IMG/VR virus record: IMGVR_UViG_2939521961_000014
DNA: 49,391 nucleotides
Strand: one strand, 5' to 3'
Origin: a virus
Lineage: Duplodnaviria > Heunggongvirae > Uroviricota > Caudoviricetes
Part shown: in pieces, positions 30,001 to 33,000 of the stretch
How positions within the stretch are numbered: the stretch's first letter is position 1
How the letters are laid out: each line of letters opens with the position of its first letter
Position numbers: made by a program

Positions 30001-33000
30001 TCGCCAACTACCCAAATATTTCGGTATTTGCTGCCATCAATTCTTTCGTAGATATTCATGCAACCTCACTTCTGCTGTTTCGCAGTTTTTTAAGTTTCTG
30101 TTGATACTCCGCCTTGATGGCCCTGCACTCTTCGACAGTCCAGCGATAGCGGTTATGGTTTGATTCGATTTCCTCTACTGCTTCCTGCCCGATGCGGCTA
30201 ATCAGTTCGACGCGATACGGAACGAGATTTCCGCTTTTGTGCTGGTTGCACACCACGCATTGCTTGTGAATATTGCGTTCATCAAATCGGAGTTGAGGTG
30301 CCGCAGCAGTTGTCCGGTAATGTCCGGCATCCCACTGAGCAGACGTGAGCGTTCCGCACGAGATACATGGTAAGTCGCGGTCTCTTTCTCTGATGAAGGC
30401 GTTTACGGCTTGTTGGGCTTGTTTAATCCAGTAACTGCGGGGCTTTAAGGCGAGTTTTCGAATCTTCAGTTTATCTTTCTGTTTCTGCTCCTCTCGTCGT
30501 AGTTTCTTCTCTGCTGCTTTTTCCGCTTTTTCGCGTTCTTTACTTCGTCGTTCGAGTGCTATCTTGGTTCCACAAATCTCATTACACCAATATTGATTTT
30601 GATATTTTGGTATAAACCATTCATTGCAACATTTACATTTCCTTCGATAGATTCGCATAAGTGCTCCTTTCGTTGCCGGAAAAATCACCGTAATACTTAT
30701 CTCGGGCTTCTTCAGCAACTAGTACCGCTAACTCCAGATCATCAAAGCATCCGAAGTGTTTACTCTTGCCATGGAATCCTAGCCTAACATTCCATTTTTT
30801 CTGTCGTTTGTGCCAAGTAACCCCTCTGCAACCTGATTTGCTATTCTTTCGGATCCTTATATTTCTTGAATTTTCTATTGGCAGGCATTCTCTTAAATTT
30901 TCTGGCCTATTGTCGGTCCTAATTCCATTAACGTGGTCAATTTGACCAGCAGGCCAACGATTATGAGTTATGTAAAAAACTAAGACGTGAGTTTTATATC
31001 TACGCCCATCTATCATGATCATTGAATAACCGTTGGAATCAAAAGTTCCAGCAACACTATTTAATGCTATCCTTCCCTGAGTGGGAACTTTCCATCTAAA
31101 TACCCCGGTAGATTTATCGAAACTTAGTAACTCAAATATCCTTTTAACAGTTAAATCTTCTCTTTTACGGTTACATCGTCTTCGCGCTGGTTTAGCCATC
31201 GCCTTCTTCCTCCGTAATGGTTTTCTGAATTTGGCCACCTGAACAGAGCTCACCAAAGCTATGGATGTCGGTATTTCCACAATACCAAGATGGCGAAAAT
31301 AACTGCATGATAAGCCTCAGGGAAAAGGGAAGACACTACCCCCGATAATTCAGAAACAAATCGAAATACATGAACTAAAGAAAAAACCACAACAAACAGA
31401 AATAGAAATAGAAATAGAAATAGAAATAGAAATAGAAATAGAAATAGAAATATTAAAACAGACCACCACATTCCTGATGTCATACTCACTAAACAATTTT
31501 TCGACAACATGGTAGCTCATAGAACGTTATCGTGTAGACACCCTCTGCTACGTATTCGGTGTTCAGTGCAATATCTACAAATACTGGAAAAATCTAAAAT
31601 TGAGGCAAGTTTTTGGTGATAACTATAGTTAGACTATATTGACGACCTGATGTGCTGTATGTAATAACTAACAAAAAATATTTTCCATGGGATTTTTTAT
31701 TTTAATGAAATGCAAAATATTTTTATCAATAGTTAGTATTATGGAAACCATTAATTCAGGAGGAAACTTGATTCCAAATTCAACTTCAAATAAAGGTTAT
31801 GTATGCATTGACATGCAGTGTTCGTCAACCTCTGAACCAACAGCTTCTACCTCCAGCAACCGGAGTATTAAATTAGCCGCTTCCACAAATGTATATCCGA
31901 TAACAAGAAACGACTCCGAGCTCACTCTGAACGATTTTCTTGATAATAGCTCTTCTACGTCATCATTGGACTACATTAATGAATTGGGTTCTCAACTGAC
32001 GTTAAATGATTTTCTTGACAACATAAAGACAAATGAGGTGGATAGAACATGTACGGATGTGGTAATTAATATCCCACAAGAGATACAAACAAATACACAG
32101 GAAAATGATTTGTTATTATCCGATAAAAATAATTCAATATGCATTGAAATCGATGAAAGAATTACAAAAATCCTAACATGCAAGCAAAAATATCAACTGG
32201 ACAGCATCATTCATGAAATTATACCAAAAGAGAATGAGAGTGCAGAAACTGTTCTCCATCTTATGAGAGTTCTGAACGATCAATATCATCAGGTATATAA
32301 TCAGTCAGGATGTTTTTATAAAGCCTATATGGCCATACACAATAAAATCGAACAGATACTTCCATATGCGTTCAGAGCCGGAGGCGGAATCAGCATTCAC
32401 TTGCTCATACAGGCATTATTTTTTAATGGCGACTATAACAAATCACCTTCACAGTCTCAACAACCATCTTTATATACATCACCTTCTCCAACAATAAATA
32501 CAGAAGCATTCTTAAGTAATGTATTATCACTAGATATAACCCAGGTACGCATACTTGGTGATTTACTATCAGCAACTTTATTTCATGCACCAACAATATT
32601 CTATCAATATCCTAAACTAATAGATGAAGTTAAGTATTGTATAAGTAATAAAAAAATAACAGGTTCGGTTATAGCACGATTTACTCTATGTTTAACAAGT
32701 ACATTACTAACCATGTCACCACTGTTAATGCTTAATGGAGCAGTTAAAACAGGTAGCATAGTAAGAACTATAGGTAGGGGAGTGAGTTATGTTGATATAC
32801 CATTGGCCTTAGCTATATTAGGTGACTCGTGGTATAAAGCTTATAAACATGGTTCTTCTGATAACCCAAATTCTGCTCAGAGATTTATATCGCAAGAAGC
32901 GGCCTTTAAAACCACCCAGCGGGTATTAACACAAGGATTAAGTCTGATGTCCTCTTTATCGGGAGCAATCATGCGCTCTCTTGAGAAAGGCACACCACCA

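Follow-up and report, generated by a model that had tools for sequence, protein, structure and literature searches.

A putative HNH-AP2 homing endonuclease cassette within the coding sequence of ninG in lambdoid prophages

Homing endonuclease genes (HEGs) normally do their host little harm, because they are placed in intergenic DNA or within introns or inteins that splice themselves out. The window analysed here, a stretch of 49,391 nucleotides from a virus of the class Caudoviricetes (IMG/VR record IMGVR_UViG_2939521961_000014), raises the question of how such a gene could lie within the coding sequence of a phage gene, ninG, and leave that gene whole. On its minus strand the window contains an open reading frame (ORF) of 188 aa (30633-31199; RefSeq WP_001108084.1, 'HNH endonuclease') which begins on the first codons of ninG and overlaps the start of a full-length ninG ORF. 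Over this region the window shares 100% identity with a lambda-like prophage in strain 11368 of E. coli O26:H11. A first-pass annotation had proposed that a free-standing homing endonuclease invaded ninG by way of the host gene's start and brought along part of a different ninG allele. On the evidence given below, we consider it likely that the locus is a promoterless, free-standing homing endonuclease cassette of ~600 nt, embedded in the coding sequence, with a replacement 5' end for ninG, the lambdoid recombination gene whose product (NinG/Rap) is a junction-specific endonuclease.

The start of the HNH ORF was compared with that of lambda ninG. The N-terminus of the HNH ORF reads MAKPARRRCNRKRED and the translation of lambda NinG reads MMAKPARRRCKNDEC. 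At the nucleotide level the segment 31171-31199 (ATGGCTAAACCAGCGCGAAGACGATGTAA), which forms codons 1-9 of the HNH ORF, is identical to the lambda ninG 5' end at 29 of 29 positions, and it was unchanged in all HNH-positive loci. In a 2.3-Gb phage database this 29-mer matched ninG starts only (~55 records), so the match with the lambda ninG start is not due to chance. The similarity continues upstream in a shared translation-initiation patch (31200-31213, GGAGGAAGAAGGCG), which in the alignment of HNH-positive loci and lambda comprises the ninG Shine-Dalgarno sequence (SD) and the 3' end of ninF; SD and ninF 3' end before the HNH ORF (GGAGGAAGAAGgcG) are nearly identical to those of lambda. The first-pass annotation had matched the MAKPARRRC start to NinG, and the nucleotide identity together with the shared SD establishes that this start is derived from ninG. 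The TAA stop codon at the ninF 3' end (31192-31194) overlaps the ATG. Since the HNH ORF is in frame with the first nine ninG codons, it inherits the SD, the start codon and the stop/start overlap with ninF from ninG. A consensus scan of the minus strand upstream of the HNH ORF found no sigma-70-like promoter, and the only feature in the scanned region was a weak terminator-like hairpin (31343-31328). The two types of upstream flank found among carriers are homologous only from ~14-20 nt before the ATG onward.

The left junction of the insertion lies after 31171. From there, foreign, endonuclease-specific, AT-rich DNA extends to 30659 (30659-31170, minus strand), after which ninG restarts from its own SD and ATG within the 3' end of the HNH gene. 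The new SD, AAAGGAG (30664-30670), lies inside the C-terminal extension of the HNH ORF, 5 nt 5' of the ATG at 30658, and the two genes overlap by 26 nt (30633-30658). The HNH ORF ends at a TAA that arises where its own frame crosses the Cys-Lys codons (TGT-AAA) of ninG. The resulting ninG ORF (30056-30658, 200 aa) is full-length, with a Pfam NinG match of 279.5 bits covering positions 5-192 of 193. Its first 28 codons (30575-30658) are variant, and lambda-like sequence resumes exactly at TGTGGAACCAAG (30574) and continues to the end of the gene (30056-30574, ~96.5% identity to lambda). This agrees with the earlier description of a resident ninG that starts from a new Met, has a differing N-terminus and then becomes lambda-like.

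All four N-terminal cysteines are present in the restarted protein: in the alignment C8, C11, C25 and C29 each have a counterpart among the cysteines of other alleles. The claim that the lambda cysteine spacing had been kept was correct for three of the four positions; the first pair is CxxC in place of the Cx4C of lambda, a 2-residue deletion that also occurs in the natural alleles of H-19B and SE16. Of 59 carriers, 55 had an intact ninG ORF (200 or 203 aa). With its SD, ATG and 28 AT-rich codons, the cassette's 3' end rebuilds the complete four-cysteine N-terminus in frame with the resident lambda-like ninG, and the host gene is kept whole despite the element within it.

By comparison with lambda-type ninG, nt 30-93 (64 nt) are swapped for 596 nt, which consist of the remaining endonuclease ORF and of a repeated ninG 5' end that has diverged from the first. 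The alignment places the insert between nt 29 and nt 94 of a lambda-type ninG allele; unlike the usual free-standing HEG, it is not intergenic, as it follows nt 29 of the ninG coding sequence. The homologous ninG codons on either side, RRRCK and RRKCK, are marked by an imperfect direct repeat, with an upstream copy at 31171-31184 (CGAAGACGATGTAA) and a downstream copy at 30633-30646 (CGAAGGAAATGTAA) that ends in the HNH stop codon; the copies agree at 11 of 14 nt. An empty site was reconstructed using the flanks of E. coli NMBU_W05E18. A collinear, empty lambda-type ninF-ninG site was present in at least 225 genomes, the best of which was 98.6% identical to NMBU_W05E18 over 1493 nt and too distant for reading a conversion tract. 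The span from ninF to ninG was 532 nt longer than in the empty site, consistent with the replacement of 64 nt by 596 nt.

We then asked whether the variant ninG 5' end occurs apart from the HNH gene, as the first-pass annotation had named its common occurrence in endonuclease-free phages as a finding that would speak against the proposal. Among 5426 complete E. coli genomes 538 carried the variant stretch, and in 532 of these the match covered at least 80% of a probe extending into the HNH 3' end. The weakest match, in strain PK8241, has an IS3 insertion between the ninG SD and ATG, and the HNH gene is still present upstream. This IS3-family element (locus L003, NZ_CP080139.1, positions 2733-3946) is flanked by a 3-bp duplication; it cuts ninG off from the HNH gene, and ninG is probably silenced as a result. 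In the phage database the variant was found only in AU6Stx1 and SH2026Stx1, and all 4 phage records were HNH-positive. In IMG/VR, 52 loci matched a 41-nt probe and all 51 with readable upstream sequence carried the complete cassette with 0-5 mismatches, one of them with a 1-nt frameshift in the HNH gene. A peptide-level degenerate pattern run against 241 million metagenome records found seven loci, in each of which the DNA was the same and the cassette complete. The variant 5' end was therefore linked to the HNH gene in every case examined (538 E. coli, 4 phage, 51 IMG/VR and 7 metagenome loci), and no endonuclease-free example was found among them.

The base composition was in agreement with this linkage, the variant codons resembling the HNH gene and not the rest of ninG in GC3. 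The G + C content of the variant codons, the HNH-specific part and the rest of ninG was 28.6%, 39% and 49%, respectively, and at third codon positions (GC3) it was 25%, 31.5% (HNH core) and 49%. The 64 nt adjacent to the insertion have given way to a copy that is 63-68% identical and has a 6-nt deletion. In a tblastn search with a 32-aa query, the best endonuclease-free NinG N-termini were only 55-61% identical.

The product of the HNH ORF matched HNH_3, a Pfam family of His-Me finger endonucleases (residues 68-107), with 42.7 bits (cut-off 24.8, E 4.2e-11) and phrog_99, 'HNH endonuclease', with an E value of 1.4e-71. The residues of the catalytic motif, D88, H89, N101 and N110 (His as general base, Asn/Asn at the metal site), were invariant in an alignment of 13 family members, and only one of 62 loci had an N101S substitution. 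The ORF was intact in 62 of 63 loci, with a ratio of non-synonymous to synonymous polymorphism (pN/pS) of 0.32 (11 synonymous and 13 non-synonymous polymorphisms). An AlphaFold2 model had a mean confidence (predicted local distance difference test, pLDDT) of 86.7. For the N-terminal half, where a beta-beta-alpha-metal fold would be expected, the top Foldseek match in the PDB was I-HmuI (probability 1.0), with an E value of only 8e-3 and a template-modelling (TM) score of 0.35 over the whole query. The C-terminal half matched 1gcc (root-mean-square deviation 1.3 A over 51 columns, probability 1.0) and the AP2 domains of WRI1 and TEM1; the model shows an AP2-like fold with strands at 127-130, 135-142 and 145-152 and a helix at 155-173, as in AtERF1. 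The earlier reading of 30633-31199 as an HNH/AP2 ORF was confirmed.

Model confidence was low only at residues 1-10 and 171-188, which correspond to the ninG-derived N-terminus and the ninG-overlapping C-terminus. Relatives in the family usually start 10-14 residues later and end ~12 residues earlier than the ORF in the window. Based on these shorter ends and on the low model confidence there, the ninG-derived ends look like appendages on a standard enzyme, and the ORF looks like an intact member of the HNH-AP2 family with appended ends. The closest protein relatives were 44-47% identical. One (P0004) is encoded on a contig of a T7-like virulent phage; another (P0005) adjoins ABC-transporter genes, which is uninformative, and a third (P0007) is on a short contig. 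Among GTDB species representatives the sole match was one distant protein from Planctomycetota, and a sequence search of the PDB gave a marginal AP2 match only. The endonuclease-specific DNA had no match in the phage database beyond AU6Stx1 and SH2026Stx1.

The cassette was nearly invariant between loci, with 0-6 differences in 625 nt. Over 50 loci, nucleotide diversity of the HNH-specific part was 0.43%, compared with 1.4-7% for ninG on the downstream side and 34% on the upstream side. Upstream, the cassette is preceded either by a truncated ninF-like remnant and an AT-rich orphan island or by a complete ninF of the lambda/P22 type without the island. Downstream, ninG is followed by ninI directly, by ninH and ninI, by ninH alone or directly by Q, of which at least four types were found. 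Counted by island or full ninF on the upstream side and by ninH, ninI and Q type on the other, the contexts form eight or more combinations. Carriers include prophages of O157:H7, O26, O111 and O145 strains and two Stx1-converting phages, in which the cassette lies 1-2 kb upstream of Q-stx; a prophage of Salmonella Infantis was a carrier from outside E. coli. In total the cassette was found in ~10% of complete E. coli genomes. It is a single, nearly invariant lineage, found across a wide range of mosaic nin regions in prophages of the two genera, Stx1 phages included.

Other genes have also entered this part of the nin region. In E. coli FORC_041 (locus L066, NZ_CP016628.1) a gene of 270 nt at 1001-1270, which encodes 89 aa without an assigned function (WP_001279421.1), has been inserted exactly at the boundary of the ninF stop and the ninG start. 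It has taken over the start position of ninG, for which a TAATG overlap is formed anew. Roi/KilAC antirepressor genes occupy the same ninF/ninG junction in other genomes and phages. A second HNH-AP2 gene was found inside ninF, as a 539-nt AT-rich insert encoding 168 aa with 36% identity to the enzyme in the window. Of the 5426 E. coli genomes 44 carry it, for example AST240 (locus L064, NZ_AP043633.1 1226318-1228949, locus positions ~945-1490), and is annotated by PGAP as a partial pseudogene despite its open frame. The first codons of this insert appear to rebuild the CExC (CxxC) that it interrupts in NinF; they are followed by a new tail, while the former 3' end of ninF persists as a leftover. 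This second case suggests that invasion of nin coding sequences by the HNH-AP2 family is recurrent.

How could such a cassette have spread? Free-standing phage HEGs are often promoterless cassettes with a sporadic distribution and diverged flanks, which spread by break repair with co-conversion (PMC2988022), and an N-terminal HNH domain with a C-terminal AP2 domain is a recognised HEG architecture (PMC10448857, crediting its reference 45). In the homing model that we favour, induction would lead to transcription of the cassette as part of the delayed-early pR/nin message. The enzyme would bind through its AP2 domain and cut or nick HNH-less lambda-type ninG in or near the replaced 64 nt. Repair of the break from an HNH-positive co-infecting or co-resident phage would then copy the cassette in, with crossovers in the ~43-nt patch of ninF 3' and ninG 5' sequence on the left and within conserved ninG on the right. 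The recoded 5' end with its 6-nt deletion would protect carriers from cutting. Both the replacement 5' end and the endonuclease may have come from an unsampled AT-rich phage with a ninG homologue.

Several observations weigh against this interpretation. The AP2 profile of Pfam scored 22.2 bits over residues 123-171 (E 1.8e-4), under its cut-off of 33.3. Endonuclease-free alleles are naturally hypervariable over the first ~90 nt of ninG, with pairwise identities of 56-88%, so the divergence of the variant by itself is unremarkable; its distinctive features are the exclusive linkage to HNH and its composition. The donor ninG allele was not found among 5.8 billion proteins with a 40-aa N-terminal query, which returned only E. 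coli fragments of the same allele. Neither an HNH-free variant ninG nor a donor was found by the exact scan of IMG/VR, the degenerate scan of metagenomes or the 'distant' blastn search of phages. Because of this, we infer co-conversion from another allele from composition and linkage only. The downstream boundary of co-conversion is invisible beyond 30574, because lambda-type ninG is so conserved. The low diversity of the cassette is partly an ascertainment effect, since the loci were retrieved with exact patterns, and could simply reflect youth. Finally, the ninF/ninG boundary is, as the inserts described above show, a general module junction and insertion hot spot; because it hosts inserts that are not nucleases, the cassette could be carried along by the usual mosaic recombination, with no homing involved. 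The original proposal is supported in part: its structural side holds, the enzyme is a putative nuclease, and no donor allele was found.

The point about the ninF/ninG boundary is the basis of the main rival explanation, in which the cassette arose by one illegitimate recombination event and now spreads passively with ordinary nin recombination, its HNH protein being inert, decaying or engaged in something other than homing (for example, cutting competitor DNA, or defence). The 89-aa gene of FORC_041 and the Roi/KilAC genes likewise respect the start/stop overlap, the flanks of the cassette reassort freely, and one frameshifted HNH copy and one IS3 insertion exist; in addition, it has been cautioned that homing cannot be inferred from sequence alone (PMC10448857). 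Even so, we regard such passive spread as unlikely, as the reading frame has been kept with a complete catalytic motif and the pN/pS ratio given above, and the diversity of the cassette is far below that of its flanks. Moreover, exactly the host sequence adjacent to the insertion has been replaced by a recoded, exclusively linked copy, as target-site immunity predicts, and a gene of the same family has entered the neighbouring ninF independently.

Two further possibilities concern the structure of the locus itself. If the insert were a group I intron or an intein with an in-frame ORF, splicing would join MAKPARRRCK to CCNEWF... and removal of nt 30-567 would give an in-frame NinG of H-19B-like length; the imperfect repeat CGAAGNNNATGTAA that bounds the insert would fit such an arrangement. 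However, no Rfam family was found at E<=1 in 30000-31700 on either strand, and RNA structure at the HNH/ninG junction was not significant when compared with shuffled sequences (z = -0.46). The endonuclease ORF fills all 538 nt between the repeats, leaving no room for a ribozyme core, and the stop codon at its end speaks against an intein. The locus also has a strong SD and ATG and a complete N-terminus of its own, MRIYRRKCK (compare MAKPARRRCK and, in Emek, MRKVRRRCK), for which splicing would leave no need. With the Rfam scan empty and the junction folding like shuffled sequence, an intron or intein was rejected as extremely improbable. Hardly more credible is a mis-called start or chance match with ninG, in which the endonuclease would start downstream. 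The family relatives that begin 10-14 residues later would agree with this, and an upstream in-frame GTG gives an alternative call of 215 aa, but the next in-frame ATG, near residue 59, would remove the conserved N-terminal domain, and the 29-nt identity and shared SD are specific to ninG starts. The related idea of a packaging accessory like HK97 gp74 was rejected as well: in O26 strain 11368 the HNH gene (locus 9132-9698) and the gene of the small terminase (15863-16372) are ~6.2-6.7 kb apart, not adjacent, with Q and the lysis genes in between.

In the direction of transcription (minus strand) the order of genes in the window is ninF-like remnant (31192-31308), HNH ORF, ninG, ninI (29394-30059) and Q (28774-29397). 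The ninH gene is missing, so that the ninG stop overlaps the ninI start directly (ATGA, 30056-30059). The same direct overlap occurs in phages 434 and phi458, whereas lambda has ninH in between; other carriers of the cassette do have ninH. Downstream of Q, a predicted membrane-like ORF of 252 aa (27778-28536, minus strand), with a match to phrog_1521 (function unassigned) and without a Pfam domain, occupies the position of the stx genes in Stx phages.

The ninF-like ORF of 38 aa keeps the CG-x10-C spacing of NinF and ends in EEEGDG*, without the first CxxC. It is annotated as hypothetical in SH2026Stx1 and had no match in Pfam or PHROG; it looks like the C-terminal part of a diverged NinF, probably truncated by the island. 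The island itself contains a divergent orphan ORF on the plus strand (31687-33540, 617 aa; 590 aa in RefSeq) with a G + C content of 34%, no Pfam domain and a match to phrog_9230 only (unknown function). This ORF replaces ninF and the upstream nin genes in prophages of enterohaemorrhagic E. coli (EHEC) and in the Stx1 phages SH2026Stx1 and AU6Stx1. Between it and the ninF-like remnant lies a (GAAATA)n microsatellite of ~nine units (31394-31450), the length of which differs among related loci; matches of O157 strains begin just inside it. In prophage Sp17 of O157:H7 Sakai (locus L067, positions 1547-2364) a partial IS30 and a lipoprotein gene replace or interrupt the island, and ~250 nt of proximal flank of the window type are kept.

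The first-pass annotation had connected the endonuclease with this orphan island. In the sampled E. coli genomes, the island-type flank was always accompanied by the HNH cassette, and no island-type flank with an empty site was found among them. However, 21 of the 51 IMG/VR loci, E. coli strains NMBU_W05E18 and PK8241 and the Salmonella Infantis prophage carry the cassette with an intact lambda-type ninF and without the island. As far as these data show, the island is therefore not a consequence of the endonuclease, and their proximity does not support a causal link; island and cassette are linked in one lineage, that of the EHEC prophages and Stx1 phages.

The HNH gene is already annotated in hundreds of genomes, and a literature search (ninG/ninF/HNH, locus and protein identifiers) found no paper describing the gene or its architecture. 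The locus may represent a third arrangement for a HEG, inside a gene, with the start signals reused and the displaced piece replaced by a recoded copy. If the enzyme is active, it would cause double-strand breaks and gene conversion in the region controlling Shiga-toxin expression, and as only 1-2 kb separate the cassette from Q and stx in the Stx1 phages, a recombination hot spot would be created there. Part of the mosaicism seen in Stx phages would then have a concrete mechanism open to testing, as would the exchange of Q/stx modules among EHEC prophages. If inactive, the cassette would still be a clean natural example of a selfish gene tolerated within a coding sequence. Only tentatively do we put forward the broader proposal that this is an undescribed HEG strategy, namely invasion of a coding sequence without intron or intein, in which the ribosome-binding site and nine codons are captured and a recoded, 'prosthetic' 5' end restores the protein and removes the cleavage site, with the ninF case pointing to recurrence and, given an active enzyme, a hot spot of recombination at Q/stx.

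Among known systems, the free-standing mob and seg HEGs (HNH/GIY-YIG) of T-even phages ('intronless homing', PMC2988022) resemble the cassette in that they are small, promoterless, sporadic in otherwise collinear genomes and part of a polycistronic message, with flanks that differ from endonuclease-less alleles. Like them, the cassette would be expected to spread by repair of double-strand breaks with co-conversion. They are intergenic, however, and usually cut hundreds of bp away, whereas the cassette lies within a coding sequence and is fused to nine host codons. The T-even HEGs have no replacement SD, ATG and 28-codon 5' end and belong to virulent phages; the cassette has such an end, belongs to temperate lambdoid prophages and encodes a putative nuclease. 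The closest published analogue found is MobE in nrdA of Aeromonas phage Aeh1 (PMC3045599), also an HNH HEG in a conserved coding sequence, without intron or intein and with the host function kept by a compensating arrangement. In Aeh1, nrdA yields two polypeptides that reassemble, whereas ninG loses only nine codons, and the duplicated and recoded 5' end that the cassette supplies completes it again. Other members of the HNH-AP2 family share the two-domain architecture of the enzyme in the window, which is 44-47% identical to them at best and has extra ninG-derived N- and C-terminal extensions. I-HmuI of Bacillus phage SPO1 (PDB 1u3e), an HNH nicking homing endonuclease, is the best structural match for the N-terminal half (99 aligned columns), but with 17% identity only; it is intron-encoded and has a different C-terminal DNA-binding module. 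In mitochondrial group I introns, ORFs are fused in frame to the upstream exon, so that the endonuclease continues the 5' coding sequence of the host. There the host gene is restored by splicing, whereas here, where no intron is present, ninG would be restored by re-initiation at a new start codon.

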